Source: an uncultured Rheinheimera sp. (GTDB lineage: Bacteria; Pseudomonadota; Gammaproteobacteria; Enterobacterales; Alteromonadaceae). From it: DNA of 64,000 nt. A program made the position numbers and the translations under genes. The first letter of the stretch is position 1. Each line of letters opens with the position of its first letter. Positions 7,739 through 27,520 of the stretch are shown piece after piece. The stretch is taken from contig CBINNO010000003.1 of the NCBI GenBank assembly GCA_966252055.1, forward strand, positions 396-64,395. The letters are read 5' to 3'. Under the pieces are notes generated by a model. It did not search any database, had not been told where the DNA came from, and worked only from the letters and a program-made list of their open reading frames with translations.

Positions 7739-8452
7739 GTGCGAATCAGCGCAATCAACAGCTTTTGCGTTTTACTGGTTGCTGTACTGTTCAGTCAGGA
7801 CTTACTGGCTGAATCTGTTCAGGTAAAAAGCCGTGTCGACGGCCCCGGCATGCTGGAGCCCGCGCTGGCGGTGGTTGAACCGGGCGAGGCACTGCATTTG
7901 TTGATCAAGCCGGAGCCCGGTTACCGGCTGCGGCAAATATCCGGTTGCAACGGTCAGTATCAGGCCGGCATTTTTATTGTTGAGAACCCCAAATACAGCT
8001 GTGTGGTGGAGGCCAGTTTTGTGCCGGACGATGCCAGACTGGTTTCGCCAGCCCCGACACAAACCACGGGCAGCTCTGTCATCCAACAAACGCAAAATCC
8101 GGGGGCGCTGGCAACCGCCAAGACCGCCAAAAAAGCCGGCCGGATGCTGAAGTTTATTCTGGTGGCAAACCAGGTCATGCAACAGGTCAGCGTGACCAGC
8201 CGGGTGATTGCGGGCCTCGGTACCGTGCTGCCTGCGGTGCAACAGCTGCAAAAAAATCAACCGGCCACAGTCGTCGCAACGCCGGCCGCTGGTTATGCCA
8301 TTCAAAGCATATCGGGCTGCGGTCAACAAAGCGCCATCAGCCCGCTGCTGATCCCGTCTGTCAGCGCCAATTGCGTGGTCGACGTGATTTTTGTCCAGCT
8401 GAAAAATGCCCTGTGGGACCAATTTAACTGGGATCAGGCGACCTGGGGTTAG
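7739..8452 (+). CDS. Secreted protein with two divergent InlB B-repeat-like beta domains and C-terminal LWDQFNWDQATWG motif (237 aa)
   Basis: GTG 7739 after AAGGGAG; signal peptide MRISAINSFCVLLVAVLFSQDLLA; two repeats of PxPGYxxxxISGC...CVVEASF/CVVDVIF; paralogue at 26819. Confidence 0.85.
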   Translation: MRISAINSFCVLLVAVLFSQDLLAESVQVKSRVDGPGMLEPALAVVEPGEALHLLIKPEPGYRLRQISGCNGQYQAGIFIVENPKYSCVVEASFVPDDARLVSPAPTQTTGSSVIQQTQNPGALATAKTAKKAGRMLKFILVANQVMQQVSVTSRVIAGLGTVLPAVQQLQKNQPATVVATPAAGYAIQSISGCGQQSAISPLLIPSVSANCVVDVIFVQLKNALWDQFNWDQATWG

Positions 8453-8506
8453 TCCCCGGTCTGCTCAGTCAGGCAACTGCATGTTCAAACAAAAGCTGCG
8501 TCCAGC

Positions 8507-8530
8507 GGTGTGCCGGCCTGCCGGCACACC
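8507..8530. other. Perfect intergenic inverted repeat (stem-loop)
   Basis: GGTGTGCCGG-CCTG-CCGGCACACC, 10-bp stem and no U-tract. More likely an mRNA-stabilising or processing hairpin inside the operon than a terminator. Confidence 0.55.
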
Positions 8531-8579
8531 ACAATGACTGGCAGCACAGCAAAGCGCAGAAAAAAGGAAGATATCAACG

Positions 8580-10466
8580 ATGACATACTGGGTAAAAAAG
8601 CTGGTTCTCGCTTTGGCTGTGACGGCTCCGGTCGCGCATGCCGCCAATCTGGTGCAGTTCAGTGCCGGCCAGCCAGCCAAAGCGGCGGAAGTGAATGCCA
8701 ATTTTAAAGCGCTGAATGATGAGTTGGCAGCCGCCAAAAATTTCAGCGACCTGACCGAGGCCCAAATCCAGGCGCTGAAAAATGCGGTCGGCGCCGGCGG
8801 GGTCATTGACGGGCTGCAGGTTGATTGTACCGAAGACCCGGCGGCTCTGGTCAATGTGATAGAGACTAAAGGCAGGCATAACCAGTTTATGCGCGTCACT
8901 ATTAAAGGTGACTGCCATGCAGTGATGACTACGCAGTTCCACGGCTTTAATCTGTTTATCAATGGCGATGAAGCGGGCGCCCGTCTGATCCCCGATCCTG
9001 ACGCGGTGCAAAAGTGGAATTTGCTGGGTGGTTTTAACGGCGGTCTCTATCTCAATAATCTGACGTTGTTGCCGCCATCTGACGCCGATGCCGTGCTGTT
9101 TTCCCGGTCGTCACAGGGCTCGTTGACCAATGTGACGATTGAAGGAGGCAGTAATGGCGTCGTAGTGCAGGCGACAGCGCAGGTCTATCTGACCAATGTC
9201 AAAATACGCAACACCAGCCAGACAGGCATCTCAGCTTATACCGGCGGTTCGCTGCGATTCACCGGCAACAGCGACAACAGTGCGCTGATTGAGACCCACT
9301 CAGGAATTGGCCTGTTAGTCGATCTGGCGGGCGCCAGTATGGCGAACACTGAAATTAAAGCGCCAGTCGCTTTGGAATTGCGTAACGGCGGAACCTTAGC
9401 AGTCAACTTTGGCCGTCAACTGATCCTGCAGGGCAGTACCAGAATGTTTACCGGCGGTCAGCTGAGTGCGCAGGATATCGCTGTGACGGGGTCAATTCTG
9501 ATGCGGCAGGCCTCGTTGTTTGCTGACAGAGCCACCATTGTCGGTAACACCCGGTTGTTCGATGGCGCACAGTTTACGGTCCTGAGTGGCTCCATGCGGG
9601 CAACGGACCCACCATCAGCAAATTACGATGAGCATATGGTACTGGAAGTATCGGGCGGTTCTCAGGCGACTTTAGGCCGGCATGCGACTCAGATGCAGCT
9701 CGATGTGACCGGCTATTTGGTATTGAACAATGCCCGGGTTTCAGCGCTGTGGACCCAGCTGAATACTGATTTAAACATGGAAGCTTCGTCATTTTCGATG
9801 GAAAAATCTAACTTTCTCGGGCTTGCGCGCGACGCCAACAATCCCTACCAGGCCAATCTGAGCAGTAACTCAACCTGGCGACTGTTTCAGTCCAATGTTT
9901 CGGCAGGCAAAGTGTTGCTGATGCAAAGCACTTTGAATATCGATGGCGAGAGCGGCAACAATAACTACGGTAATACCGCCAACACCTACTTCCAGCTGGC
10001 GATGGGCAGTTCGTTGAGAGCCGCCAATTGCAAAGGTAACAGTTACTTTAATCTGGAAGGCAGCAGTTTGCAGTTACTGGATTGTGATTTCACTGAATCC
10101 GTGGTGTCGGCACATACTGGCAGTAAAGCCCGGATTGACCGTTCGAAGATTGGCCTGGTGCATGTGGATGGCGGCAGTACCGCGGGTTTCTACCAGTCAA
10201 AACTGACAGGCGCAGGATTTACCGACTGGGGCGACCAAAATTACAACATCGGCGCCAATTCTATGATGTATCTGGATGGCTCATCGCTGACCGTGACCAA
10301 ACATTTTAACAACAACGGCGTGCTGCGTTTGCAAAATGCCAGCGTGGATATGAAAAACTCCACAGTGCAATGTTATGCAAACCGCGGCTTTATTGAATGG
10401 TGGTCCGCCACGGCTGCCAGCACTATCGGTGTGCTGAGCGGCTGTAATTCTGCCCCGGCACCTTAG
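8580..10466 (+). CDS. Secreted parallel beta-helix (pectin-lyase-fold-like) protein with N-terminal FSAGQPAKAAEVNANF motif, 628 aa
   Basis: SD AAGGAAG; signal peptide ending AHA; short coiled coil, then G/S/N-rich repeats (LTNVTIEGGSNGVVV, LTNVKIRNTSQTGISA) typical of right-handed beta-helices. Confidence 0.75.
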   Translation: MTYWVKKLVLALAVTAPVAHAANLVQFSAGQPAKAAEVNANFKALNDELAAAKNFSDLTEAQIQALKNAVGAGGVIDGLQVDCTEDPAALVNVIETKGRHNQFMRVTIKGDCHAVMTTQFHGFNLFINGDEAGARLIPDPDAVQKWNLLGGFNGGLYLNNLTLLPPSDADAVLFSRSSQGSLTNVTIEGGSNGVVVQATAQVYLTNVKIRNTSQTGISAYTGGSLRFTGNSDNSALIETHSGIGLLVDLAGASMANTEIKAPVALELRNGGTLAVNFGRQLILQGSTRMFTGGQLSAQDIAVTGSILMRQASLFADRATIVGNTRLFDGAQFTVLSGSMRATDPPSANYDEHMVLEVSGGSQATLGRHATQMQLDVTGYLVLNNARVSALWTQLNTDLNMEASSFSMEKSNFLGLARDANNPYQANLSSNSTWRLFQSNVSAGKVLLMQSTLNIDGESGNNNYGNTANTYFQLAMGSSLRAANCKGNSYFNLEGSSLQLLDCDFTESVVSAHTGSKARIDRSKIGLVHVDGGSTAGFYQSKLTGAGFTDWGDQNYNIGANSMMYLDGSSLTVTKHFNNNGVLRLQNASVDMKNSTVQCYANRGFIEWWSATAASTIGVLSGCNSAPAP

Positions 10467-10515
10467 CCAATCCACAGCCAACCACCGGTTGCCCTGCAGC
10501 CACAAGCAATCCCGC

Positions 10516-10846: not shown

Positions 10847-13800
10847 ATGGGTATCACACACTTTTTTTTAAACGCGATCTTGTGGGTTTCACTGTTTCTC
10901 AGTGCATCGGTGCACGCGTCTTCAGTCAAAAATTTCCGAACCGACCTGATGTGTCCGGAAAATTTCCATGAGCAGTCTAATTTTCATTACGACGCGCAGG
11001 CCGCGAAGGTGCTTGCCGAATTCGCCCGGGATGTCTACGTCATTAAAAGCGAACAAACGTTAGCACAAAGCAAACTGGCGTTGGAAAAGCTGATGAATGG
11101 CCGCTATGCAAACGCATTGGTGCTGAACAGCCAAGATTTACAAGGTGATATGCAGGCTTTCGTCTGGGAAAATGATGACAAAATAATTGTATCTGTAAAA
11201 GGAACTGATGAGCTGATCGATTGGGAGTTTAATCTGACAAATTACAGAGTCCCGTTGAGCGTAGAAAACAAGAGCGTACCGGGAGTTCAGGTTCATATGG
11301 GTTTTAATTTTTATGCGGATCGACTCATTGAATTACTTCAAGCAACACAGCAAGGGCAACAGATACTCAACAGAATTTTGCTTTCTGAAAAAGATGTTTT
11401 TCTGACTGGTCACAGCCTCGGTGGCGCTGTCGTAACCTTGTTGGCGGCGAAATTTCGGGAAATGGGGGTGTCAAAGGGACGGCTGCAAGTTTATACCTTC
11501 GGAGCACCTGCAGTCGGTGACGATGCATTTGTAAGTCGTTACGAACCCTACTTTGCCACAGGCTTTAATATTTTCCGCGTGAGGAATCAGGATGATGTAG
11601 TCCCTTATGTCACTTACCTGGATATAGACAAACTCACAATCTCACGCTGTGCAGCGACATCCTTTAAGCCTGGTCATCCGGCGGCAAACTTTGTCAGATG
11701 CCTGGCAGGCAAGACTGCCATGTCGGTGTTTAAACATCGGTTCGAACAAATTGGTTTTCTGCGCGCTCACTCATCTGCAGTCGCGAATTACGGACAACAG
11801 TTGGATGCCCGGCAATCAACTGTGTTAAGACCTACGGACTGGAACGTGCTGAACATGCTGACCTCAGATCGGGTGTTTGAGGTCTTTGCCGAACATAGCA
11901 GTGTTTTATACGCCAGCCATGTGGCGCAGAATCATCAATTAAGCACAGCACCCGCCTGCAATATTGATGGAAGCGTCCAGCGCGCTCAACAAGCTTACGT
12001 ACCGACCGTTTTTCATTTTGGTCTGACCCGTTTGAAAAACAGCGAGGTGAAGCTCAGTGCGCCAGTCACGTTGCAAGCCGAATCTGCCACTTATGGTTCA
12101 ATGCGTATTAAACTCGGGCTACCACCATTAAAAGGCCTTTTTGTGACGACCACAAAAACAGTGGATCTGACAGGCGCGGGTATCGTGATTGAGGTCAAAG
12201 ATAAAGCCACTGGCAAAAAGTTTTACCGCCGTGATTTTACCGTGAGCGCAGCGACCTCGGATGAGCCATTACTGCCAGAATTTTTACCAGATAATTTGCC
12301 ACAGAGTTTTTATACCGAACGCACCGGTCAGCAGGATTTTGTTTTACAGATCACTGCATTCAATACCAAACATCTATTTGATAACGGCTCAGACACTTTT
12401 CACTGGCAGCAAGACATTCATCTGGAAGCAGATGACGTGGACTACTTGTGGCAATACCAGCCAACCCGCTTACGGTTTCAGGACAGCAGCAAAACGGACT
12501 GGGACAGCAGCCAACACATGCTGTCATTGCAACAAGGCGAAAAATTCTCAGTTTGTTTAAGCAACAGTCCGCGCCAACTGACTCAGGTCACCAATATCCA
12601 GTTAGTGGTTGATGTTGTCGGTGCGGGCAGAAGGATTACTTTTCAAGCGCCGAGCTATGATGATGCGACCGGTTGCATGGAGTTTACCGCCAGCGAAACG
12701 GGCAGATTTAAGTTGATCCGGGTGGATGCTGAGGTGTTTCGGGATGATTTAAATCAGTCTGTGTACACGACCTTGGATTATTTTTATAGGGGCTATGTTT
12801 CTGTTACGGGTTCGTTTCAGCAAGGGGTTGGCAAACTCCTTTTTCGTGATGACTTTAATGGCGCTGAGCGAGGTCCAAATCCGGAGCATTGGATTGCTTC
12901 AGGATATGATGTGGTTGTGTCTAATGGTCATTTAGGAATGTATGCCAATGTCACCGATAATACAGGTAGAGTTAAAAGTAAAATTTCAATTCCATCTGGA
13001 AAAATCAAGGTGACTATTAAGCATTATATGTCACCTGGGGGGAGTTATTTCTTTCCGAAATTATCTTTAGGTCTTAAGAATGGAACATATTTAGGTGCTA
13101 TGTTTATGAAATCAGATTATTTTGCAGATAATTGTGGGGATTATGGAAATGCAAATAAAATCTCGATTTATACATCTGAGAGTCACTGTAATTTTTATTA
13201 TGCAGTAAATTCTTCTGACTTTTACAATAAATGGGTGGAAACAACTCTTATATTCGATCCGGCAACAGGTCTGATACAGTTAGATCTCGGAAATGATAAG
13301 TCAATCGATTTTGAGGTAACTTTGTCGCCGGAGTATCGGGCGGATGTCGACCATATCTACATGGATGGATATGGATGGTGGACATTTCATCAGCATCTAA
13401 TTGACTGGATCACTGTAGAGGCAGGCTCGGAGTATGATAGTAGCATACCGACAACCACCTTCCTCTCCGAAAACCTGCCCGATGGCACTTATCAGCTGGG
13501 GGCCGCTACCAAACGCTGGCGTTTTAAAACAGCCGATGTGGCTGTTGCTGGCTTAAAAGCCGTGCGGGTCAGTGCGGATGCGGCGCTTGGTATTCAAACT
13601 GCCGAAATTCCGTTGGGCGATGTCGCGGCTAACAGCGAGTTTCTGGTCGAGTTGCCGCTGCAGGTTAGCCGTGGCAATCAGGCGGTGGCGCGTTCGGTGT
13701 GGAAATTGGTTGATGGTACTGGTAAAGACGTGCAGATCAGCAACAGTAAAACCAATACCTTCTGGCTGTCGCTGCGGACAAACAGGCCTCCCCAGTTTGC

Positions 13801-15634
13801 CGCCTTGCAAAAAACGGCACTGGGCGGTGAGGTCGGCAATCTGTTGCAATTACCTTTACAGGCGACAGATGCTGACGGCGACGCCCTGACTTTTTCAGTG
13901 GTATTCGGCGGTGGCAGCATTATTGATAAAGTCAGCCGCGTGAGCAACAAAGCCTGGCAGGGTAGCTTTGCGCAGGCGGGGGTACAGCCGCTACAGCTGG
14001 CCGTTTCGGACGGGCTGGAGCAGGATCTGATCAATATCGATGCGGTGATTTACACCGGTAGTGGTCTGGCGAACTTTTTTGCCGATGTGCAATATCCGGG
14101 CACTGACGATATCAACAGCGTTTACAGTGCCGTGCACTTCCTGGCTGGCAAAGGCATTGTGATGGGCGCATCGACACAGGCGGGTGAGCGATATTTTGAA
14201 CCTGCGCGCGCAGCCACTCAGGCGGAAGCTTTAAAAATGTTGTTGCTGGCAGCGCAGGAGCGTGGCTTTGTCCAGCTGCAGCAAGCTCCCTATATTCCTG
14301 AGCATTATCAGAACCAGATCAGCCAGAACGGCCAGCTGTTCGACTACAGCTGGGCGGCTGACTATGCCTACACAGCAGAGCAACTGGGCATGGTTGATAA
14401 CCTGCAGTTGTTCGAACCGGCGGCTTTGCTTAGCCGTGAACAGGCCGCGTACTGGCTGGAACAGTTGCTGGAACTGGAATCCCCGCTGGCGGTGCTCAAA
14501 GCGCGTGGTCTGACCGATCGTTATCAATTCAGCGATGCAACAGCTTTTGCGCAGCCAGCGCATTATCAGGCCGCTTTAAAAACGGCGTTGTTCGGTTACC
14601 TCGGGACTTTGGGACAGAATTTCCGGCCGGCAGATCCGATCAACCGCGGCGACTTTGCGGTGATTGCGGCCCGGGTGCTGCGCACGGCCACTGTTGTTGG
14701 CCTGACCAGCCAGCAAGTGCAGCTTGCCGAGCGCTTTGGCCAGCAGATGCCGGTGGTGAAGCACGGGCAAACGCTGCAAATCAATGGCGTGACCGGTTTG
14801 GCGGTGTCTGAAATTTCGCAGCAGGGCCAGCTGATTAAAGAGGAATGGCTGGACCCGGCGCAAAGCTACGTCAGAATTGGCATCACACTGGATGATGGTA
14901 CTGCACTCGGGACAGCCCGGATGATTGATCAGCTGGCGTCTAAGCCATTGCTGCTTAATACCAATAACCTGCAACTGACCCGCAGCAGCATGATTAATTT
15001 GATTGTGCTGCTGGAAAATACCCGTTCAGGCGTAATTAGCGCACAGTATTTGCCGCTGGCACTCGATTTTGCCGACAAAGACGGTGATGGACGCCGCGAT
15101 GATGTGGACGCTTTTCCAGAGGATAACAGGTACAGCCGTGACGCCAATAAAAATGGTGTGCCTGATGAAGTTGAAGATTTGTTGCGCGAGCTCGGCATTG
15201 ACGGAACTGCCAAGGCGACGGTCAATGGGGTGGCACAAAGTTATAGCCTGGCCTATGCCATCGCTTTTGGCCTGGCTTACGACAGAACCACGACAGGATT
15301 GCCGCAGGATAAAACGGCTCCGGTGATTCAGTTGCCGCCTGTATTGACCATTCAGACACCACACAGCGACGGCTTGCCAGCGACAAACTGGCAGCTGGCA
15401 AATTATCTGGCTGCGGTAAAGGCTGTGGATAATCTGGATTTGCATGTCAAGCTGAGCCATGACGCCCCGGCCCGCTTTGCCATAGGCCAGACCTTGCTGA
15501 CGTTCACCGCGACAGATCAGGCCGGCAATATTTCTAAAGCCACCGCCACCGTCACGCTGGAGCTGGTTGCGGCCAAACCGCGCAAATCAAGGATGATGAA
15601 AATTATCTTGCTGAGCCAACCGCAGTCGCCATAA
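10847..15634 (+). CDS. Large secreted class-3 lipase / NBR1-Ig-like / cadherin-like / 3xSLH / TSP3-like / HYR mosaic protein (about 1595 aa)
   Basis: Start moved to ATG 10847 (signal MGITHFFLNAILWVSLFLSASVHA). Lipase_3 motifs VHMGF, FLTGHSLGG, YTFGAPAVG, NQDDVVP, EHSSVLY. NBR1-like FLSENLPDGT...TKRWRF. QATDADGDALTFS. SLH-like FADV...FEPARAATQAE, FEPAALLSREQ, FRPADPINRGD. DKDGDGRRDDVDAFP. HYR DKTAPVI...TFTATDQAGN. Confidence 0.85.
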   Translation: MGITHFFLNAILWVSLFLSASVHASSVKNFRTDLMCPENFHEQSNFHYDAQAAKVLAEFARDVYVIKSEQTLAQSKLALEKLMNGRYANALVLNSQDLQGDMQAFVWENDDKIIVSVKGTDELIDWEFNLTNYRVPLSVENKSVPGVQVHMGFNFYADRLIELLQATQQGQQILNRILLSEKDVFLTGHSLGGAVVTLLAAKFREMGVSKGRLQVYTFGAPAVGDDAFVSRYEPYFATGFNIFRVRNQDDVVPYVTYLDIDKLTISRCAATSFKPGHPAANFVRCLAGKTAMSVFKHRFEQIGFLRAHSSAVANYGQQLDARQSTVLRPTDWNVLNMLTSDRVFEVFAEHSSVLYASHVAQNHQLSTAPACNIDGSVQRAQQAYVPTVFHFGLTRLKNSEVKLSAPVTLQAESATYGSMRIKLGLPPLKGLFVTTTKTVDLTGAGIVIEVKDKATGKKFYRRDFTVSAATSDEPLLPEFLPDNLPQSFYTERTGQQDFVLQITAFNTKHLFDNGSDTFHWQQDIHLEADDVDYLWQYQPTRLRFQDSSKTDWDSSQHMLSLQQGEKFSVCLSNSPRQLTQVTNIQLVVDVVGAGRRITFQAPSYDDATGCMEFTASETGRFKLIRVDAEVFRDDLNQSVYTTLDYFYRGYVSVTGSFQQGVGKLLFRDDFNGAERGPNPEHWIASGYDVVVSNGHLGMYANVTDNTGRVKSKISIPSGKIKVTIKHYMSPGGSYFFPKLSLGLKNGTYLGAMFMKSDYFADNCGDYGNANKISIYTSESHCNFYYAVNSSDFYNKWVETTLIFDPATGLIQLDLGNDKSIDFEVTLSPEYRADVDHIYMDGYGWWTFHQHLIDWITVEAGSEYDSSIPTTTFLSENLPDGTYQLGAATKRWRFKTADVAVAGLKAVRVSADAALGIQTAEIPLGDVAANSEFLVELPLQVSRGNQAVARSVWKLVDGTGKDVQISNSKTNTFWLSLRTNRPPQFAALQKTALGGEVGNLLQLPLQATDADGDALTFSVVFGGGSIIDKVSRVSNKAWQGSFAQAGVQPLQLAVSDGLEQDLINIDAVIYTGSGLANFFADVQYPGTDDINSVYSAVHFLAGKGIVMGASTQAGERYFEPARAATQAEALKMLLLAAQERGFVQLQQAPYIPEHYQNQISQNGQLFDYSWAADYAYTAEQLGMVDNLQLFEPAALLSREQAAYWLEQLLELESPLAVLKARGLTDRYQFSDATAFAQPAHYQAALKTALFGYLGTLGQNFRPADPINRGDFAVIAARVLRTATVVGLTSQQVQLAERFGQQMPVVKHGQTLQINGVTGLAVSEISQQGQLIKEEWLDPAQSYVRIGITLDDGTALGTARMIDQLASKPLLLNTNNLQLTRSSMINLIVLLENTRSGVISAQYLPLALDFADKDGDGRRDDVDAFPEDNRYSRDANKNGVPDEVEDLLRELGIDGTAKATVNGVAQSYSLAYAIAFGLAYDRTTTGLPQDKTAPVIQLPPVLTIQTPHSDGLPATNWQLANYLAAVKAVDNLDLHVKLSHDAPARFAIGQTLLTFTATDQAGNISKATATVTLELVAAKPRKSRMMKIILLSQPQSP

Positions 15635-18800: not shown

Positions 18801-19688
18801 GGCGTGCTGCAGCTGGCCGTCTATCGCGGTTATCGTAACAGTGGCGTAACGGACGAAGACCGCAGCTTTTATGGCACGGCTGGTACTGCGCAGCAGCTGG
18901 TGAGCGGGCAGTATTGGGTTGCGGCGCCGCAAAATGTGTTCAGATTCAGCGCGACGGCTGGTCAGAAAGTCAGTTTTGCGCTGACACCACGTACCAATAT
19001 ATCGGGCTTTAATTTTAAGGTGACTACTGCTATCGATCCCAGCCGGGCATTGATTGATTATCGTGACATCGATGACGGTGAGTCGAAGTCGTTCAGCCTG
19101 ACCGCTGCCGAAACCGGCGATTATCTGGTGTTTGTCGCCGGTGCGCAGGGCAGTTTTATATTGCAGCAAGAAGGGATTCAGGCGCCGTCTTATGCCTTAA
19201 ACACCCAAGCGGCACCGGCAGGCAGTGGTATTGTCACTTGCAGCAGCAACCCGGTCGGACATGGCGCTCAGAGTGAGTGCCAGGCGCAGGCCAACAGTGG
19301 CTATCAGTTCAGTCACTGGAGTGGCGACTGCAGCGGCAGCAGCTGTCTGCTGAGCAATGTCAGAAGGAACAAGCTGGTGCAGGCCAACTTTGCCCGCCTC
19401 TATCGTGCCAATGCGGTCAGTAATAACCAGCAGGGTGGCAGCATTGCGGTCAATACCATCAGCGGGATCGCCGGCAGTAAACTGCGTTTTAAAGTCAATG
19501 CAGCCGAAGGCTTTAAAGTCTCGCAGAATGTGGCGGGGGATTGCCCGGCCGGTCAGTGGATTGATGAGCACACTTATGAAACCGGCGCAATCAGCGCAGA
19601 CTGCGAAGTGAAATTCCTGTTTAATCCTGCCAAAACCAGGACGGGGCTGCCCTGGTGGGTGCTGACAGCCGCGCAACCGGCGAACTGA
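15849..19688 (+). CDS. Repetitive surface/adhesin-like protein: four tandem units of paired PPC-like beta-sandwiches with Ca-binding DxDxDG linkers, two InlB B-repeat-like domains, GLPWWV tail (about 1279 aa)
   Basis: ATG 15849 after AAGGAAGG. Linkers DDDSDGLANSAE, DTDADGLPDVLE, DNDQDGLSNTAE. Recurrent LNTARYL and GVYYL(R/K)V. ANSGYQFSHWSGDC. No catalytic motif seen. Confidence 0.8.
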   Translation: MKPVVSGCCSPAVLFRKFMLGCLLCFCTVFGTVFGSILSASVAWAGDFFNQPTSLSFEQETVVQKATADKFYAVDLVAGHSYSVVVQSQQISGSVAVDIYQPDSNTEVYRSEGYFYNNSYSVIEFTPAVSGRYTLKIRGVAATVRLQILRGFANPGIHDNHRSIYPGLNTARYLKSGAYAFSGRTEYFRFEGRVGDQININLLSLPANGGSARFRLYVPSGDELLTKYDDYLSLNQRAAFNFTAYHNGVYYLRVDRDGAGSFEVGLSGVRADVDDDSDGLANSAEWSRGSAVDKADTNGDGRNDYQQALAGQRGLYPTEWQRADVAGASTLQTAKAVPYFDQPFSVPMDGFDKYVSFELKQGESVALDIRALRGAGSSQAYLYGPGSSPVLIRSLGYLSQASGLSYEFTARLTGTYYLRIGAAFGLADVGIYRGLTSPLRQASLYQQTPLTAAQLQSGRLAHDGRTSYWYFLAKAGDQVSLQVSPLLTASSLTVSLFAPGDSNAFKNLSYLSSQENRSIDFIARQEGVYLMKVTGAAGQLDVILNGVQQAQDTDADGLPDVLEYLRGLDPARPDTNNNGETDAEELAAGRAGLYATEWTAQDVASALNPQVGKLLPYFNQKFSVQFPGQDTYIRLPLVAGQPVAIRVLNHTNVGSVIATVRAPDDNSRVRWSSNLSDNESGVLSVQPATTGIYSLHLSGSAGLVTVLVEQGFSHAERAGAVSAFFGSLNTARYLQNGEYSRGTEDQYFRFEMQAEEQISVALTALMDRGDLTLELWGGIRNAERRLANTYSISDKETQQLVFRAAQTGVYYLKVKGSTGRYLLSVTGLRPDLDNDQDGLSNTAELVSGLDPNRPDTNGNQLGDLLEGLNGLAGLDAVEWQSQSWQSATSRGTALPLPTVNRPLTLHLGLEKRYLKLELQAGEYITVAGRALSTHKDPSVRLYRPDSVNASVGLLYDMYDDEDTVALDYQAALTGTHYLELPAGPGVLQLAVYRGYRNSGVTDEDRSFYGTAGTAQQLVSGQYWVAAPQNVFRFSATAGQKVSFALTPRTNISGFNFKVTTAIDPSRALIDYRDIDDGESKSFSLTAAETGDYLVFVAGAQGSFILQQEGIQAPSYALNTQAAPAGSGIVTCSSNPVGHGAQSECQAQANSGYQFSHWSGDCSGSSCLLSNVRRNKLVQANFARLYRANAVSNNQQGGSIAVNTISGIAGSKLRFKVNAAEGFKVSQNVAGDCPAGQWIDEHTYETGAISADCEVKFLFNPAKTRTGLPWWVLTAAQPAN

Positions 19689-19785: not shown

Positions 19786-22479
19786 CTAGTCTTTTACGGG
19801 CGCCGTGGCTTGTATTGGCTCTGCTTCCTTTGTCGTTGCCTGATCTTTGGAGGGCGCTGTGCTGTGGACAAAGCTGCTTGCCTGCTGTGCCAGCAGCACC
19901 CACCACGGCAGGCCTTTTGATACTGGTTTCAGGCCGGCAGGGTCAATCCAGAACCGGACTTTGATGACCTGAGGGACGCCACCCTGCACTGTCACGGTCA
20001 GAGTCAGTGTCAGCCAGCCACTGACGCCTCTGGCCGGCTGGAAAATAAGCTGGCCGTTGCTGACACTGAGACGGCCGTATTGGCTGTCGCCAGCGTCGGC
20101 AAAACTGGCGGCGGTGAGCACGGCATCGTTGGTCATGCGAAAGCGCAAAGCTGAGTCCGCGCTGCAAAGTTCCGGCAGCGCTATATTTGTGACAGGCAGT
20201 GTAAGGCGTAGTGTTTCCAGCGCCTCGCAACTTAAATGGCTGTTGCCAGTCAGGTCTAACTGATATAGCTGAGTCATTGGATGTAACAGAGACAAGTCCT
20301 GAATGGCAGAATACTGTAGCCCAAGAGACAACAGTTCTTTATTGAGGTTGCTCAGTAAGGTGAAATCGGTCACCCCGCTGCCGATGAGCGAAAAATAGCG
20401 CAGTGTTGGCAATCTGGTCTGGATCTGGTTCAGCGACATGAAGCCGGCGTGGCGGATCTCAAGCTGCCTCAGTTTGTCCAGATGGTGGAGGGGGCTATAG
20501 TCCTGCAGGGCCCGGTTATCTGCTGCAATGAGCAACAGATGCTGCAAATTGCTGGCAGCTGCAATACCTTCCAGGCTGTCCAGCGTTGCTGAATCTATGA
20601 TCAGGCTGGTAAGGCTGGCCGGCTGAGGCAGCAACGCCAGCACTTGTCCGGCATTGCGAATGGCCTGCCCTGATAGTTCTAAACTGCTGATTTGGGCCGG
20701 CAGCCTGACGCCATGCAGCTGCTCCGGGGTAGCGGGTTGCAGTGCCAGAGCAATTGTTTTACTGCCCAGCGTATGCAGCGGTTTGTAGTCAGTAATATGC
20801 GAGTTGCCCAGCAGGCCGATATTTTCAACATTGAGCTGCGAAATATTCGTCAGGTCATTGATTTGATTGTCCGATAACACGACTTGTCGAAGCCAGGGAA
20901 ATGCTGTGGTGATCTGGGCGAAACTGGCTTGTGTCAGCAGATTTCCGGGTAAAATAAGATTTTGCACCACCCTGCCGCTCAAGGCCTGTATCGTCTGATC
21001 TGTCAGCCCTTGTCTGTGCAATGCCAGGAAAGTCAGGTCCTGCAATTGCGCAAACTCTGCCAGGTTAAGCGCCGGACTGGGGGTTTCTTGGTTACCGCTG
21101 ACGAACAGCCGCGTCAGTTTGCTCAGATAGCGGATCCCTTGCCAGTTATGCACGTTGCCCTGACAGGACAGCGCATAGACCGAGTTGAGTCTTTTATAAC
21201 CCTTCTCTGCCAGGCACTGGCGCAGCACGGGGTCTGGTACTGTGGCGGCACTGAGCAGTTTTTGCTCGACACCACAGGTCTGCGGCAGCCTGAAAGCCGC
21301 ATGATTGGGGTGATTGCGAAGTGTTTCAATTTGTGCACAGTCGATCGTCACTTGCTCGCTGAGATCTAATCGCTTCCATTGCGCCGCCATGTTGACGATA
21401 TCACCGATATCCACCACGGTGGCATCCTCATGCCAAAAGGCGGGGATGTACAAATATTTCAGCGTCGCTGGCAGGACAAAATCCGGAAACTTTGTCGGCA
21501 GCAGGGCCCCACTGATATCCAAAGACTCCAGCTTGTTCAAATCTCCCAATATGCTGAAATCGCTGACTTTATTGAGCCCTTTGGCAACTAAATATTTCAG
21601 ATTAGGCAGTAAAGTTAAGGCTTGCAGGTCGGCAATTTCGGTAAAGCTGATGGTCAGCTGTATTAATTCCGTTGGGGCCGGCAATGCATTGATCAGTGTG
21701 CTCAGGTCGCTGATCGGGTTGTTAGGCAGCTCAAGGTACCACAGATTCGCCGGCAGTTTTGCGCCAGTTAACGACGTGATGTTGGCGTTGTCTAGCGTGA
21801 TTGAGATGAGGTTGGGCGGGAAAGTGATGGCCAGTTCGGCCTGGTCGATAAACAAGTCGGTGATGCTCAGGCCCCGAAGATGACTCAGCTGTTCAATCCG
21901 CTTGAGGTTGTAGAGACGCAGGCCGTACTGAGGTGAAGTTTTTAGGAGATAGAGGTACTTCAGGTTAGTCAGATGCTCAATACCGCTCAAATCGACCACG
22001 TTTAAACATGCCAGCGTGGTGATGTTTTCCAGCAATTCAATATTTGTGTTGCTGATGCATTCGCGCAGTTCAGGGTCAGCAAAGTCAACATCTGCCAGCG
22101 TGGTGCTGCTGGTGTGGCCGGGCTGGGCCATTGATTCAGTCAATGGTTCTTGCAGTGCCGGCAAAGGTTTGGCGTGCAGCTCAGTGACATGGCGGTCAAA
22201 TCCGGGCAGGCTGGCGGCAAGGTCCGCATAGAGCCGTGCAGAGGGCCGCCAGTGCGCCATGCTGCGTGAAGCCGCTTTGGCATTTGTTGTCGTCAGGTCA
22301 GCGAAATTGCTGGTTGTGGTATCGACCTGCGCAAAGTAGTCCGGTAAGCCGGGTTGAGACACCGCCTGCCACCAGACCAGCGGCTCAGCCGGAGCATGCC
22401 TGGCAAAGACGGCCATACTGAACAAGCCGGCGCACATGATGCCGGTGAAGATAGCGCTGCGGATAACCCTTTGATTCAT
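19786..22479 (-). CDS. Secreted multi-block internalin-like LRR protein with C-terminal Ig/cadherin-like domain and GLPWWV motif (about 897 aa)
   Basis: Start moved to ATG 22479 (SD CAGGGAG; signal MNQRVIRSAIFTGIMCAGLFSMAVFA). Caps VDFADPELRECI and VPDPVLRQCL; LRRs (LSGIEHLTNLKYLYL). Paralogous to the 1-2913 protein. Confidence 0.9.
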   Translation of the reverse strand: MNQRVIRSAIFTGIMCAGLFSMAVFARHAPAEPLVWWQAVSQPGLPDYFAQVDTTTSNFADLTTTNAKAASRSMAHWRPSARLYADLAASLPGFDRHVTELHAKPLPALQEPLTESMAQPGHTSSTTLADVDFADPELRECISNTNIELLENITTLACLNVVDLSGIEHLTNLKYLYLLKTSPQYGLRLYNLKRIEQLSHLRGLSITDLFIDQAELAITFPPNLISITLDNANITSLTGAKLPANLWYLELPNNPISDLSTLINALPAPTELIQLTISFTEIADLQALTLLPNLKYLVAKGLNKVSDFSILGDLNKLESLDISGALLPTKFPDFVLPATLKYLYIPAFWHEDATVVDIGDIVNMAAQWKRLDLSEQVTIDCAQIETLRNHPNHAAFRLPQTCGVEQKLLSAATVPDPVLRQCLAEKGYKRLNSVYALSCQGNVHNWQGIRYLSKLTRLFVSGNQETPSPALNLAEFAQLQDLTFLALHRQGLTDQTIQALSGRVVQNLILPGNLLTQASFAQITTAFPWLRQVVLSDNQINDLTNISQLNVENIGLLGNSHITDYKPLHTLGSKTIALALQPATPEQLHGVRLPAQISSLELSGQAIRNAGQVLALLPQPASLTSLIIDSATLDSLEGIAAASNLQHLLLIAADNRALQDYSPLHHLDKLRQLEIRHAGFMSLNQIQTRLPTLRYFSLIGSGVTDFTLLSNLNKELLSLGLQYSAIQDLSLLHPMTQLYQLDLTGNSHLSCEALETLRLTLPVTNIALPELCSADSALRFRMTNDAVLTAASFADAGDSQYGRLSVSNGQLIFQPARGVSGWLTLTLTVTVQGGVPQVIKVRFWIDPAGLKPVSKGLPWWVLLAQQASSFVHSTAPSKDQATTKEAEPIQATAPVKD

Positions 22480-22716: not shown

Positions 22717-25700
22717 TTATTGCTGTGGCTGCGCCATTAACAGCAGTTGCAGCAGTCGGCTGTCTTTTTTGTTCAGCAGGATTTCAACGCTCGATTGCGC
22801 TGTGGCCTGATTGCCGCTGCTGTCGGTGCTGCTGAAATGGACTACTGTCACCCCGGGCAGGAACTTTTCCGGTGCGTCGTGGCTTACCACGACTGAGCTG
22901 TCAAAGTTATCGCTGGCGGTCACGCTGTTTAAAAACTGCTGGATACGCGGGTCTGTGCGGGCAATACCACTGCGGCCCGCTTTCAGCTGCAGCGGTGCCG
23001 GTACCTGGATCACCGGCGCGCTTTGATCGGTCAGATAAATCACCAGACTGGCGGCCGAGGTGTACCCATTTTGGTCGGTCGCTTCGAACAGCAGGATATT
23101 TTTACCGGGTTTGAGCCGGGCCGGCGTATGGACCTGACGAATAGTCAGTGGCTGATTAGCGAAATAGTCATGGGCCTTCAATTGACTTATCAGTTGTTGC
23201 ACCCGGCTGTCGGACAGACTCAGACCGTCTGGCCCTGGCGCAGGCAAAGTCACGGCTGCAGGGACGGTAAATTTAGGGCCGTAGGCGAAATTAACCAGCA
23301 TATAGACAGTACGGCTGGTGCTGTTGCCGGCCTGGTCGGTGGCGCTGAGCGTCAGCAGATGGGCGCCAGCGGCCCAGGGAGACTGATTGCTAAAACTGAC
23401 GTCAATATTGGCTGTCACCAAATCGGCCACGGTAAATTGCTCGATAAACTGATAGAACTCATAACTGTCGCTGGTGATCCCTGCGGTACTGTAGGCCGTT
23501 GCGACTGAGACGTCCGGCCCATTGATCACGGGCGCTGTAGTGTCCTGCACCCGTAACGTCTGATAGGCCACTGCAGTGTTATTGTCAAAATCGGTAGCCC
23601 GCCAATCAATCTGATGATCGCCGACTGCGTAGCTGCCTGTGGCAGTGCTCCAGGCCGGGATGCTGCCATCTTTGGCATCGGTGGCGGTGGGAGCAGTCAG
23701 CACAGCCTTAGTCTGAGGCCCGGTTGCTTCCATAGTGATGATGGGCAATGCCGCAAACACCGGTGCTGTGGTGTCGCCGGACTTACAACGTGAAGGCAGC
23801 TGGAAGCTGCGCAGCGGTATCAAAGCCCGCCAGGTGCGGTATGCGGAATCGCAGTCCAGCTGGCTGGCCTGGCTCAGGTAAACGTATTGCAGCCTGGTCA
23901 GCGTACTGAGTCCGTCGACAGTCAGCGGTACGCTGCTGCCAATCTGCAGATGGGTTAAATTGACCAGCGAGCTCAGTGGATTGAGGTCTGACAGATTGGA
24001 GGTTGTGATAGTCAAATTGGTCAGATTGTTCATTCCGCTCAGCCAGGTGGCCTGTTGCAGGTTGTCAGGGGATTGATAGTGATGACTGATATAAAGAACC
24101 CGCAGGTTGCTCAGTTGTGACAGTGGCTGGTAGCTGGCAATTTTGGTGTACTGGAGTTCGAGTTCCCGCAGGGCCGGCAAAGCAGCCAGCGGAGTCAGGT
24201 CGTTAAGTGTGTAGTTGTATAAGGTCAGCGCTGTCAATTCAGGCAGATTCGCCAGCCAGCTCAACGCAATACTGGCAGTGCCGGACAGCGTGACGTCCTG
24301 CAGTTGACGCAATGATGCCAGCGGGCTGAAATCGCTGATATTTTGACCGGAAAGATACAACCGGCTGATGTTGCTGAACTGTTCAAGGCCGGCTAACGAA
24401 CTGATACTGCCCAGTCCCGCGCAGTTATTGCCATATGAATAGGTACCAAACTCGGTCAGCTGCCCGGCGTAATGCATGGTTGGGTTTGCTGACTTAATCT
24501 GCTGCAGGCATTGTTTTAACACCGGATCTGTTACCTGCAGCAAGGCATCGCTGAAAGTCACCAGATTGCCCGGCTGATATTGACGGGCCAAACCATGCCG
24601 GATGGCATTGATGGCATAAGTTGCATCAGCGCCGTGTTCGTCATGCCGGTCGATACCACAAGGCTGGCCTTTGCATTGTTTGGCCGGGTTGGAGAACTGG
24701 TAGATTTTGCTCGCAGAAAAATAGCTTTCATAGGCCATCACCGTCGCAAAGCTGCGATCGACACCATAACCGCGGGCAAACGGCATGGAATAGCCAGTGT
24801 CGCCCTGGCGTTCTGAGTGTGCCAGCCCCATGTTGTGACCGGCTTCGTGGGCTAATACATAGTCTGAACAGGTGATATGCGTCAGACTGACCATGTAGTT
24901 TTTATTGTAGGAAAAACCACCGTTATTTGGACCGGTGGCGTACCAGCCCAAGCCGCAAATATTCGCGCTGGTCATCGGCGTCAGTAATGCGACCATATCG
25001 GCGCCTGCTTCGTAACGCCATTTATCCAGATCGGCAAAGGCGCCGGTTTTATCGGTCATTTCATCCAGCTGTGCATGACTCTCAGTGGCACTTAACGCAA
25101 CTTCCCGCATGGCGGCCAGCCGCATTTCGACAAAAACACCGCTGTCGCGATAAATCTGATTACTGACACTGACCAGGTGATAGAGCCGGGTTGCGATGTC
25201 GCCATTGTAAATGGCGGCCGCGGCAGGGCTGTACAGCATCAAAAAATCGATAGTGGCGATACTCTCATCGGTCAGCGGTGGATAAGTCTCGCCAGCCTGC
25301 ACTTGCTCATTGGCCTGAGGCTGCTTTTTCAGCTCAGGCGGCACCAATGCATCATCCTGACTAAAATCAAGGTCTTGCTGTAAGGTTGCTTCGGAAAAAA
25401 GTCTGGCTTCGCTATGCATGCCACGCACCACATAAGTGCCGTCGGCACTGACGATACGGGCAAAAAAACCTTTGGGTCCACGGGTGATCACCACCGGATA
25501 CTGTTCGCCATCCTGACGGATGTAACCGCTGAGGCTGACAATCTCTTTGGTATATTGTTTGACCGTAGTTATTTGCACTGCGACAGGGCCGCCGGGCAGG
25601 GCGAGCTGAACAGATTCAGCCGGTTGTACGGCGTCAATGGCGCTCAGGTCGAGGTTCAGTGACAGACCCTGTTGCTGAGCTTGCAGATGCCGCTCTGCCA

Positions 25701-25842
25701 GCGACTGATTGTCTGCACCTGTGCTTTGCTGGCCGAATGATGTGTCCTGCGCCGGTGTGATTTGCCAGAGTGTCTGACTGGCCCAGACACTCTGGCTGAC
25801 GACCGCCAGCCACATTATTGTCCCAGATAAAAATTTCAGCAT
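22717..25842 (-). CDS. Secreted M12B/reprolysin-like zinc metalloprotease fused to LRR block and three HYR-like domains (about 1041 aa)
   Basis: Start moved to ATG 25842 (SD AAAAGGAG; MLKFLSGTIMWLAVVSQSVWA). Pro-region; metzincin HEAGHNMGLAHS with Met-turn FATVMAY; LRR cap VTDPVLKQCL; DTTAPV...ATD repeats. Confidence 0.9.
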   Translation of the reverse strand: MLKFLSGTIMWLAVVSQSVWASQTLWQITPAQDTSFGQQSTGADNQSLAERHLQAQQQGLSLNLDLSAIDAVQPAESVQLALPGGPVAVQITTVKQYTKEIVSLSGYIRQDGEQYPVVITRGPKGFFARIVSADGTYVVRGMHSEARLFSEATLQQDLDFSQDDALVPPELKKQPQANEQVQAGETYPPLTDESIATIDFLMLYSPAAAAIYNGDIATRLYHLVSVSNQIYRDSGVFVEMRLAAMREVALSATESHAQLDEMTDKTGAFADLDKWRYEAGADMVALLTPMTSANICGLGWYATGPNNGGFSYNKNYMVSLTHITCSDYVLAHEAGHNMGLAHSERQGDTGYSMPFARGYGVDRSFATVMAYESYFSASKIYQFSNPAKQCKGQPCGIDRHDEHGADATYAINAIRHGLARQYQPGNLVTFSDALLQVTDPVLKQCLQQIKSANPTMHYAGQLTEFGTYSYGNNCAGLGSISSLAGLEQFSNISRLYLSGQNISDFSPLASLRQLQDVTLSGTASIALSWLANLPELTALTLYNYTLNDLTPLAALPALRELELQYTKIASYQPLSQLSNLRVLYISHHYQSPDNLQQATWLSGMNNLTNLTITTSNLSDLNPLSSLVNLTHLQIGSSVPLTVDGLSTLTRLQYVYLSQASQLDCDSAYRTWRALIPLRSFQLPSRCKSGDTTAPVFAALPIITMEATGPQTKAVLTAPTATDAKDGSIPAWSTATGSYAVGDHQIDWRATDFDNNTAVAYQTLRVQDTTAPVINGPDVSVATAYSTAGITSDSYEFYQFIEQFTVADLVTANIDVSFSNQSPWAAGAHLLTLSATDQAGNSTSRTVYMLVNFAYGPKFTVPAAVTLPAPGPDGLSLSDSRVQQLISQLKAHDYFANQPLTIRQVHTPARLKPGKNILLFEATDQNGYTSAASLVIYLTDQSAPVIQVPAPLQLKAGRSGIARTDPRIQQFLNSVTASDNFDSSVVVSHDAPEKFLPGVTVVHFSSTDSSGNQATAQSSVEILLNKKDSRLLQLLLMAQPQQ

Positions 25843-26156
25843 GATGCAGACTCCTTTTAATATGCCGGAACTGCTGCGCCTGTCAGCGCCGGTTCTGGTG
25901 GGCGAAAGCCCCTCAAACCCACTGGTGCAGCAGAGAAATACAGGCTTATGCTCGCTTATTTGTCTGTTGTTGTCATCTGATAAACAGTGGCCGCCGCGAC
26001 AGCGCAGATTCTGAGTGACAAGCATGGCAAAATCGGCGAGCATTCGCCGGCGTTGCGGGCCGTTTGGCCGCCTTATCTGCCCGGGTTGGGGCAGGCAATG
26101 GTGCTTGGCAGGTGGCCGCAATGGCAGAGCTGACATTGTATGACAGGGAGCTGAGG

Positions 26157-26690
26157 ATGAACGCCAAAACGATAATTGTTGGGATTTTCCTGTTAATGAG
26201 CGGATTCGTGCTGTATTTCTGGACTGCCGGATCACAGCAAGCGCTGGTGGCGCCAGTGCCTGTGTCCACGCCGGCGGCCAGCCCGGTGACTGAATCCTTG
26301 CCGGCAGTGTTACCCGGCGCTGCCGAGCCGTCAGCTGCGCCTGTCAGTGAGGTTGCGGCATTGCCTGACTCCACCGGAGCGCTGTTGTCACCGGACGATG
26401 AACCGCTGCAGCAAGACAGTGGTCCGGAAATTAATATAGGCCCGTTGATTGATCCGGAACACGATGATCCGAATTTGGGGTTGCCTCCATCTGAACCCAA
26501 AGAAATTGGCGAGTTGCTCGACCCGGAAACTTATATTCCGCCGGCACCGGCCAACGAAAAAGAAATCAATATTGGTCCGCTGTTGCCGCCACCCGGTGAA
26601 GACAGCGACCCCTGGCCTGAAGCCGCGCCGGAACAACCAAAAGAAATTGGCAAACCGATCGATGCCGGAGCTGAAGTGGAGCAACTTTAG
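26157..26690 (+). CDS. Membrane-anchored Pro/acidic low-complexity protein with IG-x-(I/L)-DP repeats (177 aa)
   Basis: ATG 26157 after GAGG; N-terminal hydrophobic anchor IIVGIFLLMSGFVLYFW; repeats EINIGPLIDPE, PKEIGELLDPE, EINIGPLLPPP, PKEIGKPIDA. Confidence 0.8.
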   Translation: MNAKTIIVGIFLLMSGFVLYFWTAGSQQALVAPVPVSTPAASPVTESLPAVLPGAAEPSAAPVSEVAALPDSTGALLSPDDEPLQQDSGPEINIGPLIDPEHDDPNLGLPPSEPKEIGELLDPETYIPPAPANEKEINIGPLLPPPGEDSDPWPEAAPEQPKEIGKPIDAGAEVEQL

Positions 26691-26818
26691 CTCTGAGTTC
26701 TGCGCCAGTGCAGCTGTCCTCAGCAACAGAACGGCCTGATTTGTATTCGGCCTTGCCCTTGACTACGCTTGCCTGACACGAGCGGGCGGAAAAAAGCACT
26801 GTGGTCGGCGGAGGGGTT

Positions 26819-27520
26819 ATGCGGGTATCTGTTTCATGTCTGCTGTGGCTGGGCATGGTGGCGTCACCGCTGGCAGTGAGTCAGGAAATACAGGTCAACA
26901 GCCGGGTCGAAGGCAGTGGTGAACTGCTCCCGGCTCGCGCCACGCTGGTGAGCGGCGAAGTGCTGCATGTGGCGATCAAAGCCGCTCCCGGATACCGGCT
27001 CAAACAAATCCATGGCTGCGATGGCCAGTATCAGGACAGCATCTTTATCACCGGCGCCGTGCGCTACTCCTGTGTAATTCAGGCCACTTTTGTGCCAGAT
27101 GCCGACAGGCTGCCGTCTGCGACTAACCCCGCGACCGAGGTCCAAACGTCACGTCCTCTGTCGTCTGACGCGCAGACGATGGCAGCAAGCAGCACACGGA
27201 AAAGCAATATCATCAAGTTTATCCTGGTGGCCCATCAGGTAAGCAAGATGGTGACAGTGACGGCCGGGATAAGCGCTGGCCTTGGCAGTATTACTCCGGT
27301 GCAACAGACGCTGCTGAAAGGCGAAAGTGCCAGCCTGCTGGTAACTCCTGCTGCGGGTCAGCGGGTGCTCAGCGTGACAGGCTGTGGCCTCAATACCAGC
27401 AACAGTGGTGTGCTGCAGACTCCTGCGCTCAGTGTGAACTGCCATATTTCAGTTAGTTTTGCCGCATTGGTGCAGGGGCTGTGGGACCAGTTCAACTGGG
27501 ATCAGGGCGCCTGGCAGTAA
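26819..27520 (+). CDS. Secreted two-domain InlB B-repeat-like protein with C-terminal LWDQFNWDQGAWQ (233 aa); paralogue of 7739-8452
   Basis: ATG 26819 after GGAGGGG; collinear similarity with the 7739 protein (QVNSRVEGSG vs QVKSRVDGPG; PGYRLKQIHGCDGQYQ vs PGYRLRQISGCNGQYQ). Confidence 0.85.
   Translation: MRVSVSCLLWLGMVASPLAVSQEIQVNSRVEGSGELLPARATLVSGEVLHVAIKAAPGYRLKQIHGCDGQYQDSIFITGAVRYSCVIQATFVPDADRLPSATNPATEVQTSRPLSSDAQTMAASSTRKSNIIKFILVAHQVSKMVTVTAGISAGLGSITPVQQTLLKGESASLLVTPAAGQRVLSVTGCGLNTSNSGVLQTPALSVNCHISVSFAALVQGLWDQFNWDQGAWQ

Follow-up and report, generated by a model that had tools for sequence, protein, structure and literature searches.

A short basic-hydrophobic C-terminal motif on exported proteins of an uncultured Rheinheimera sp. 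and its possible role in retention at the cell surface

Exported proteins encoded on a 64,000-nucleotide stretch of DNA from an uncultured Rheinheimera sp. (GenBank assembly GCA_966252055.1, contig CBINNO010000003.1; hereafter the 64-kb window) carry a short, related peptide at six sites, either near the C-terminus or within the protein (Table 1). We conclude that this tail is a real, conserved and previously undescribed C-terminal short linear motif. Judged from sequence, its conserved core is a basic cluster followed by a hydrophobic plug of 7–9 residues. The role that we favor, at a probability of about 0.35, is the noncovalent retention of secreted enzymes and adhesins at the anionic cell surface or matrix. 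An earlier note on this DNA had put forward the six peptides as a shared sorting or assembly signal, and all of them translate exactly as it quoted them.

The layout of the tail is constant. A last immunoglobulin (Ig)-like domain (B-repeat, HYR, or adjacent to leucine-rich repeats [LRR]) is followed by a Pro-containing linker, two to four Lys/Arg residues, the plug, and then 2–11 unconserved polar residues. Two subtypes exist, as had been proposed, with plugs of the GLPWWVL type (subtype 2) or the RLLKLLLMA type (subtype 1). The pattern of subtype 1, R-h-h-[KQ]-h-h-L, comes from only three C-terminal examples and is weaker than that of subtype 2. In every tail the Lys/Arg cluster lies upstream of the hydrophobic core, and the residues downstream are polar or Pro. 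This order is indeed the reverse of that found in tripartite C-terminal (CTERM) sorting signals as they have been defined (10.1101/2023.06.07.544157).

The peptide is also too short for a transmembrane (TM) helix, in agreement with the earlier proposal. The longest uninterrupted apolar run per tail is 3–6 residues, and no 19-mer scoring at least 1.6 on the Kyte-Doolittle scale occurs at the C-terminus of any carrier. The sole TM-like 19-mers in P3 to P6 are their N-terminal Sec signal peptides, which are also present on the carriers of a related contig, L001. The length of the peptide and the hydropathy scan thus exclude a classical TM anchor. A positive-inside TM topology is excluded as well because, in addition to these short runs and the lack of a C-terminal TM-like 19-mer, the basic cluster is on the exported side.

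Evidence that the tail matters as a peptide comes from its conservation. P4 has only two other relatives among 5.8 billion proteins, and both keep R-GLPWWVL: the relative at 59% identity ends in SKRRGLPWWVLMVP and the one at 40% identity ends in QPQRGLPWWVLMSANATTPSKN, in each case directly before the stop codon. The GLPWWVL string is identical in both orthologs despite several synonymous codon differences, and between lineages the peptide remains unchanged even though its G, L, P, V and L residues are encoded differently. Because the codons differ and the peptide does not, selection acts on the protein rather than on a DNA element. In the C-terminal regions of the LRR proteins, which are 27%–40% identical, LPWW makes up four of just 13 invariant columns, and L-P-W-W is invariant in all ten subtype-2 tails.

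These tails come from several related loci. L001, the 18-kb contig that holds the 59% relative of P4, has syntenic LRR, P1, P2, P4 and LRR genes, with four C-terminal LPWW tails and a P1 ortholog that carries the internal element. Two further C-terminal LPWW tails are found on L048, a contig of a metagenome-assembled genome (MAG) of pond Gammaproteobacteria. On L129, a 2.2-kb contig with a P1 homolog, the protein encoded just upstream of that homolog ends in KRQGLPWWVLMAAQKNNL.

Subtype 1 is conserved too. An exhaustive phmmer search with P6 among 1.84 billion representative proteins recovered an ortholog (P0011, 49% identity) that ends in SKRQNRLLKLLLMAPGQ and keeps RLLKLLLMA. More distant metzincins from the same search have PPRKFPLWLLVMPQDDAS and TRRRLPLWLFLPTQN as their C-termini. 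In both cases a B-repeat module homologous to that of P4 comes first, so that the variants LPLWLFL or FPLWLLV stand behind a B-repeat. The Gln that the earlier note had counted as part of the signature does not hold up. It is absent from at least five tails of other species (which end in MVP, MKPTAV or TKPVK, or run on as MSANATT...), so a trailing Gln or Pro is a species-level feature, and a Pro or Gln boundary is common without being universal. Two metzincin and TSP3-repeat proteins from other lineages, P0054 (L131 10001–12043) and P0065, end in PS-[GT]-[LM]-MPWLKLLL-[PD], which resembles a hybrid of the subtypes. They were not counted as bridging forms because they have no clear basic cluster and the one locus examined (L131) showed a single carrier.

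The tail need not be strictly terminal. In P5 it is followed by an extension of 31 residues (19786–19881, minus strand) that is rich in Ala, Ser, Thr, Pro and Lys and is absent from the LRR relatives in L001 and L048, which stop 4–8 residues past LPWWV. In the P1/P7 family, the element stands after a hypervariable linker and before the second domain as a conserved island, [KR][KR]-x-x-hh-[KR]-F-hh-V-A-[HN]-[QR], that is present in all family members. The two internal sites of the window are real, as claimed, but they represent one conserved element of a single small protein family. Because an extension in P5 and an internal site in P1 and P7 are tolerated, neither a free C-terminus nor a membrane-spanning topology is required.

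Table 1. Tails, carrier genes and neighboring features of the 64-kb window
Feature	Coordinates	Strand	Description
P3 tail, subtype 1	15575..15631	+	KPRKSRMMKIILLSQPQSP; C-terminus; part of HYR+tail module
P6 tail, subtype 1	22720..22770	-	KKDSRLLQLLLMAQPQQ; C-terminus
P4 tail, subtype 2	19632..19685	+	KTRTGLPWWVLTAAQPAN; C-terminus
P5 tail, subtype 2	19882..19929	-	KPVSKGLPWWVLLAQQ; followed by 31-residue low-complexity extension
P1 internal element, subtype-1-like	8120..8176	+	KTAKKAGRMLKFILVANQV; between disordered linker and second B-repeat domain
P7 internal element, subtype-1-like	27194..27241	+	TRKSNIIKFILVAHQV; site equivalent to that of its paralog P1
Truncated LRR gene	1-2913	-	C-terminus beyond window edge
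P1	7661-8452	+	Open reading frame; small protein, two B-repeat domains
P2	8580-10466	+	Exported beta-helix protein
P3	about 10847-15634	+	1595 residues; signal peptide, class-3 lipase domain, HYR-like domains
P4	15849-19688	+	1279 residues; signal peptide, PPC domains, B-repeat (Flg_new_2) domains
P5	19786-22479	-	897 residues; signal peptide, LRR
P6	22717-25842	-	1041 residues; signal peptide, Mep72/CpaA-like metzincin domain, LRR, HYR domains
177-residue acidic protein	26157-26690	+	N-terminal TM anchor; divergent from P6, upstream of P7
P7	26819-27520	+	233 residues; paralog of P1 (43% identity)
Exopolysaccharide/capsule locus	27616..51965		Glycosyltransferases, PL14 lyase, AlgX/GDSL-like acyl-transfer or esterase proteins, KpsC/S-like proteins, KpsD/E/M/T-like export, membrane sulfatase-family enzyme
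Membrane sulfatase-family enzyme	50412-51965		

The carriers are not all independent of one another. P3 and P6 have a homologous HYR+tail module in common (40% identity over 106 residues), and this module together with the paralogy of P1 and P7 reduces the six proteins of the earlier note to about four independent contexts, although all six sites are real. The domain content was likewise said to differ. This is borne out by P4 and P5, which can be aligned only over their last 34 residues (the last beta-strand and the tail), although P3 and P6 have the HYR+tail module in common. The occurrence of the same tail after nonhomologous domains identifies it as modular.

A chance origin of the tail is effectively excluded. 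In six-frame translations of the window, L001 and another related locus, L002, LPWW occurs seven times, always within long open reading frames, and six of these seven occurrences lie 9–17 residues before a stop codon; the seventh, in P5, lies 41 residues before it. With the three additional tails near stop codons from L048 and L129, the total is ten, nine of them at 9–17 residues. A hidden Markov model (HMM) trained on the six window peptides alone and applied to independent loci recovered seven C-terminal tails (8.5–12.7 bits, ending two to nine residues before the stop) and two internal sites of the P1 family (12.5–12.9 bits). The best other match scored 5.5 bits, and the tail of one LRR protein of L001 (LRR-844) reached only 3.1 bits, which is within background. 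Across the window itself, all remaining matches scored at most 2.6 bits. The HMM check suggested in the earlier note thus picks out only C-termini and the P1/P7-family internal site above background. A loose regular expression matches the window genes six times versus a mean of 2.0 in shuffled versions (20,650 residues), with four of the six matches in the last 45 residues of a protein. Four tails lie inside a 12-kb part of the window, and the 18-kb L001 contig has another four. We considered a translated DNA repeat or terminator and rejected it, because the DNA that flanks the tails is unrelated and orthologs differ at synonymous sites.

The motif is rare. Among the 120 matches listed from a DNA-pattern scan of GTDB genomes for GLPWWVL, one MAG contig (L048) has true tails, and the other listed matches are out of frame or are parts of genuine long TM helices. 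Four viral matches to the same pattern are all due to chance. P7 has six homologs among 5.8 billion proteins, and a scan of JGI metagenomes with a P1/P7 profile returned one locus, which was again the L001 contig. A literature search for "LPWW" found nothing relevant. The organism was detected in rhizosphere, freshwater, soil and wastewater metagenomes, and fragments of P4 to P6 in RNA-labeled runs are weak evidence of expression.

Does the tail belong to a known class of sorting signal? NCBIfam and Pfam scans of both the full proteins and the isolated tails at E ≤ 10 gave no match to any CTERM model, and TIGR03501, the GlyGly-CTERM model, did not match any of the seven tails tested at that threshold. 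As a positive control, TIGR03501 scored at or above its 15.5-bit cutoff in four of six 50-residue tails taken from homologs of P6. The negative CTERM result is meaningful because these control tails were detected in the same scan, and it upholds the view that the tail matches no described CTERM family. No type IX secretion system (T9SS) C-terminal domain (Por_Secre_tail, TIGR04183/PF18962), a beta-sandwich of about 70–80 residues, was found at a C-terminus; there were only subthreshold internal matches in P4 (residues 515–543 and 802–825). One other NCBIfam model, NF058595 ("lipo-invert putative C-terminal anchoring domain"), matched one GlyGly control tail weakly and below threshold and did not match our tails. 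Its name suggests that another concept of an "inverted" C-terminal anchor already exists.

The homologs of P6 supply valuable context. Among 148 of them, about 31 have GlyGly-type tripartite C-termini and about 13–14 have T9SS-type C-terminal domains. A surface-sorting signal is thus habitual at the C-terminus in this protein class, and it is this slot that the tail occupies here. A reading in which the tail has no function at all, as a chance resemblance, a translated DNA repeat or the decayed remnant of a GlyGly-CTERM signal, is very improbable. The motif is admittedly short, the loose pattern also matches shuffled proteins as described above, and some GlyGly-CTERM tails hold similar strings such as G-A-L-W-W-L-V-L-L. 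However, the tail is conserved across species with synonymous changes and is specific in its position, its flanking DNA is unrelated, and TIGR03501 does not match it although the controls do match. The possibility of a decayed GlyGly-CTERM was rejected because the tails remain within the range of their own shuffled versions on a home-made HMM of GlyGly tails.

The tail nevertheless resembles several known systems in part. Five properties of tripartite sorting domains are found here, namely a location near the C-terminus, multiple instances per genome (judged on the window and the L001 contig), at least three invariant signature residues (in subtype 2), carriers with signal peptides, and pairs of carriers that are otherwise dissimilar. 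Two others are lacking, since the definition of such domains includes a TM-length hydrophobic segment and then a terminal basic cluster (10.1101/2023.06.07.544157), whereas the tail has no TM-length segment and no basic cluster at its very end. The tail is thus like tripartite signals (LPXTG/sortase, PEP-CTERM/exosortase, PGF-CTERM and MYXO-CTERM) in its terminal site, its multiple paralogous and nonparalogous carriers and its invariant LPWW, and like PEP-CTERM in its association with an exopolysaccharide locus, but it differs in its inverted order and its tolerance of an internal site.

GlyGly-CTERM and rhombosortase (TIGR03501), of which VesB of Vibrio cholerae is an example (PMC6219818), offer a close comparison. 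These signals are also short C-terminal appendages on Sec-exported gammaproteobacterial proteases, lipases and adhesins, with several carriers per genome. They occupy the same position in about 31 of the 148 P6 homologs, and some of them hold G-x-(L/M)-(P/W)-W. The tail, in contrast, is without a Gly/Ser-rich motif, its plug of 7–9 residues is not of TM length, and its basic cluster comes before the plug rather than after it.

Other likenesses concern anchors and docking modules. The DD-carboxypeptidases PBP5 and PBP6, MinD and FtsA have C-terminal in-plane or amphipathic membrane anchors, which share with the tail a length of about 10–20 residues, basic and hydrophobic composition, sub-bilayer length, a flexible linker and predicted helicity. 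These anchors are clearly amphipathic and variable in sequence and are found on periplasmic or cytoplasmic enzymes, whereas the tail has a low to moderate hydrophobic moment, a near-invariant LPWW and large, apparently extracellular carriers. Indolicidin (ILPWKWPWWPWRR) and tritrpticin (VRRFPWWWPFLRR) are free antimicrobial peptides of animals with affinity for lipopolysaccharide (LPS) and anionic membrane interfaces. They have composition and strings (RR..LPWW, FPWWW) in common with the subtype-2 tail, which is a physicochemical analogy only, with no evolutionary relationship. Dockerins are folded, Ca-binding domains with a length of about 70 residues. Like dockerins in the dockerin-cohesin system, the tail is a small C-terminal module on enzymes of varied catalytic type, encoded in one island with noncatalytic repeat proteins, but it is instead a linear peptide of about 15 residues.

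Structure predictions and membrane energetics provide further clues. In the AlphaFold2 model of P4, the tail is of low confidence and undocked, with one helical turn at WWVL. The P7 element is modeled as an isolated helix (residues 126–142; predicted local distance difference test scores of 41–53) that packs on neither of the two confident Ig-like domains. The alignments behind these models are shallow (three and seven sequences), so they carry modest weight. For the same reason the models are weak evidence against a tail that completes the Ig domain in front of it as its last strand, or that packs as a donor strand in P1 and P7, an arrangement we rejected because the modeled elements are undocked and of low confidence. 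Foldseek found no significant match in the PDB for the P7 model. Calculated Wimley-White interfacial energies are favorable for subtype 2 only; its cores range from -3.3 to -4.7 kcal/mol, with an upstream net charge of +1 to +3. Helical hydrophobic moments are 0.06–0.26 for the C-terminal tails of both subtypes and 0.35–0.39 for the internal elements of P1 and P7.

The exported-protein set at 7.6–27.5 kb lies downstream from a gene for a hybrid histidine kinase/AraC regulator and the truncated LRR gene, and tagged genes adjoin polysaccharide biosynthesis genes in four lineages (the window, L002, L130 and L132). The window encodes neither a sortase, exosortase, rhombosortase or CPBP protease nor any other polytopic membrane protein that is unexplained, consistent with the earlier statement that no processing enzyme is recognizable there, and no cognate sorting enzyme is recognizable in the related loci either. 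A speculative partner is the 177-residue acidic protein, whose Pro-rich ectodomain has 29 Asp/Glu versus four Lys/Arg residues (net charge about -25) and four repeats of the form E-I-(N-I)-G-x-L-[LI]-[DP]-P-E. Genes for such acidic-repeat proteins adjoin tagged metzincins or P7-type genes in the window and in L126 (9390–9917), L127 (9339–9872) and L130 (2–442, minus strand), and the protein has no family match. Bound to the membrane, it might serve the basic tails as a chaperone or receptor.

The homologous sorting slot, the purifying selection and the flexible appendage seen in the models make a role in sorting, anchoring or co-assembly more plausible, and they do so without distinguishing among these three. 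Retention at an anionic surface is the most likely specific role. It is supported by the amino-acid-level conservation, the modularity, the basic cluster on the exported side, the interfacial energies of subtype 2, the undocked AlphaFold2 tails, the sorting slot, the polysaccharide neighbors and the tolerance of an extension or an internal site. The carriers would be exported by Sec via their N-terminal signal peptides and would probably traverse the outer membrane through some general route, for example type II secretion. The tail, left uncleaved, would then bind noncovalently at the anionic surface. Its cationic patch could engage phosphate, carboxylate or sulfate groups, whether these belong to LPS, to phospholipid or to the exopolysaccharide encoded nearby, and its Trp/Leu plug could form a short in-plane helix within the membrane interface. 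In this way lipase, protease and adhesin proteins would be kept on the cell or in the matrix, and the tail would do the job that GlyGly-CTERM and rhombosortase perform on homologous proteins of other Gammaproteobacteria. Several points weigh against this retention role. The secretion route is assumed, and we infer both the binding target and the absence of cleavage. The equivalence of the two subtypes is likewise deduced from their identical layout, their coexistence in one island and their use on homologous metzincins, and the interfacial affinity calculated for subtype-1 cores is weak (-0.5 to -1.7 kcal/mol). The low-to-moderate hydrophobic moments (0.06–0.39 overall) mean that the tails are not classical amphipathic helices. 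Finally, the strict invariance of L-P-W-W is beyond expectation for a generic lipid-binding peptide and fits protein recognition.

Because LPWW is strictly invariant, a dockerin-like role in docking or co-assembly stays nearly as likely as retention, though still doubtful in its own right. The plug would fit into a groove of a dedicated protein partner from the same island to yield an ordered assembly of multiple enzymes and adhesins. The partner might be found among the LRR domains of sister proteins, the double B-repeat proteins P1 and P7, and the acidic-repeat protein with its inner-membrane anchor. The invariance extends across contexts and lineages, and the core is uniformly hydrophobic rather than amphipathic, as would suit burial in a groove. 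The co-occurrence of genes also fits: the window, L001 and L129 have P1-type genes beside tagged ones, the tails and the P1 family are both extremely rare and share their contigs, the highly acidic repeat protein adjoins tagged metzincins, and LRR domains are abundant among the carriers. However, two dissimilar subtypes would need a degenerate receptor or two receptors, tagged genes in L002, L130 and L132 have no P1-type gene in the available flanks, and the co-location may merely reflect shared ancestry within a narrow lineage. We regard as rather unlikely a more ambitious version, in which a hitherto unknown surface-assembly system of inverted polarity uses the tail as its address label. Such a label would be read by partners from the island (P1/P7, the acidic four-repeat protein, or both), would replace GlyGly-CTERM and rhombosortase, and would organize lipase, metzincin, PPC and LRR proteins on the exopolysaccharide matrix.

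Unlikely as well, and ranked below these, is an enzymatic sorting signal of new architecture, in which a hypothetical peptidase or transpeptidase from another part of the genome would read LPWW or RLLxLLL, cleave, and attach the protein covalently to lipid, glycan or LPS. The five tripartite properties listed above (Haft criteria; 10.1101/2023.06.07.544157) speak for it, and the tail sits in the GlyGly-CTERM slot of homologs and adjoins an exopolysaccharide locus. Proteins with PEP-CTERM signals often adjoin such loci. The signal would nonetheless have no segment of TM length by which the substrate of an intramembrane enzyme could be held in the membrane, and its basic cluster is on the wrong side. 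Moreover, there is no candidate enzyme in the 64 kb or in any related locus, the element is internal in P1 and P7 and 31 residues from the end in P5, and the core is followed by very few residues, which are unconserved. Less probable again is a transport signal, by which the tail would transiently tether the protein, folded in the periplasm, to the inner membrane's outer face or to some secretion machinery (that for type II secretion [T2SS] or another) and so serve as a signal for secretion or vesicle loading. Sec signals are present on the carriers, which are typical extracellular proteins and have no other recognizable signal for outer-membrane translocation, the tail is predicted by modeling to be flexible and exposed, and the GlyGly-CTERM proteins among their homologs belong to a class of T2SS cargo that is membrane-tethered at the start (PMC6219818). 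Against such a role, P2 and other exported proteins of the island have no tail, and there are no secretion-system genes nearby. Signals for T2SS are also generally conformational rather than linear.

Several other features of the island deserve mention. The C-termini of P1 and P7 (8410–8449 and 27478–27517) have an invariant W-D-x-F-x-W-D-Q-x-x-W in all members of the family, modeled at low confidence by AlphaFold2, and this Trp-rich end represents a second conserved terminal motif of the same island. The beta-helix family of P2 also has a conserved C-terminus, [EQ]-W-W ... G-x-C-N-x-x-P (10380–10463). Other members of this family are encoded at L001 3–461, L001 4621–6516 and L126 3–1379, and the window, L001 and L129 all have a P2-type gene together with a P1-type gene. 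Residues 1173–1214 of P3 (14105–14230) give a sub-domain match to the S-layer homology domain PF00395 (E = 7.9e-6), which is unusual for a gammaproteobacterial protein. Among the Mep72-like metzincins (P6, 22717–25842, and those of L127, L130 and L132), precomputed Pfam matches include an N-terminal BamI_lipocalin-like domain, which would amount to a metzincin inhibitor family fused to the protease itself.

The capsule locus has notable contents of its own. At 39622–40572 (minus strand) and 41681–49655, a GT29 (sialyltransferase-family) glycosyltransferase is encoded alongside a Kps-type set for ABC-transporter-dependent capsule export. The GT29 enzyme, the Kps set and the sulfatase-family enzyme together suggest an anionic polysaccharide. 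Adjoining the locus at 52128–60919 (minus strand) are genes for a 2483-residue type I polyketide synthase (KS-AT-DH-ER-KR-ACP) and then a class I/II aminotransferase.

To our knowledge, the described tags LPXTG, PEP-CTERM, GlyGly-CTERM and MYXO-CTERM all follow one plan, which consists of a motif, a TM helix and an Arg cluster. Short C-terminal sorting tags have repeatedly led to new envelope-processing enzymes and to methods for cell display. The practical reach of the present motif is limited, since its known occurrence is restricted to a gammaproteobacterial lineage that is rarely sampled and apparently uncultured. If the retention role is true, however, Gram-negative bacteria would own at least one other way of holding secreted proteins at their surface, and a tail of about 15 residues would be a very small and possibly enzyme-independent display tag.

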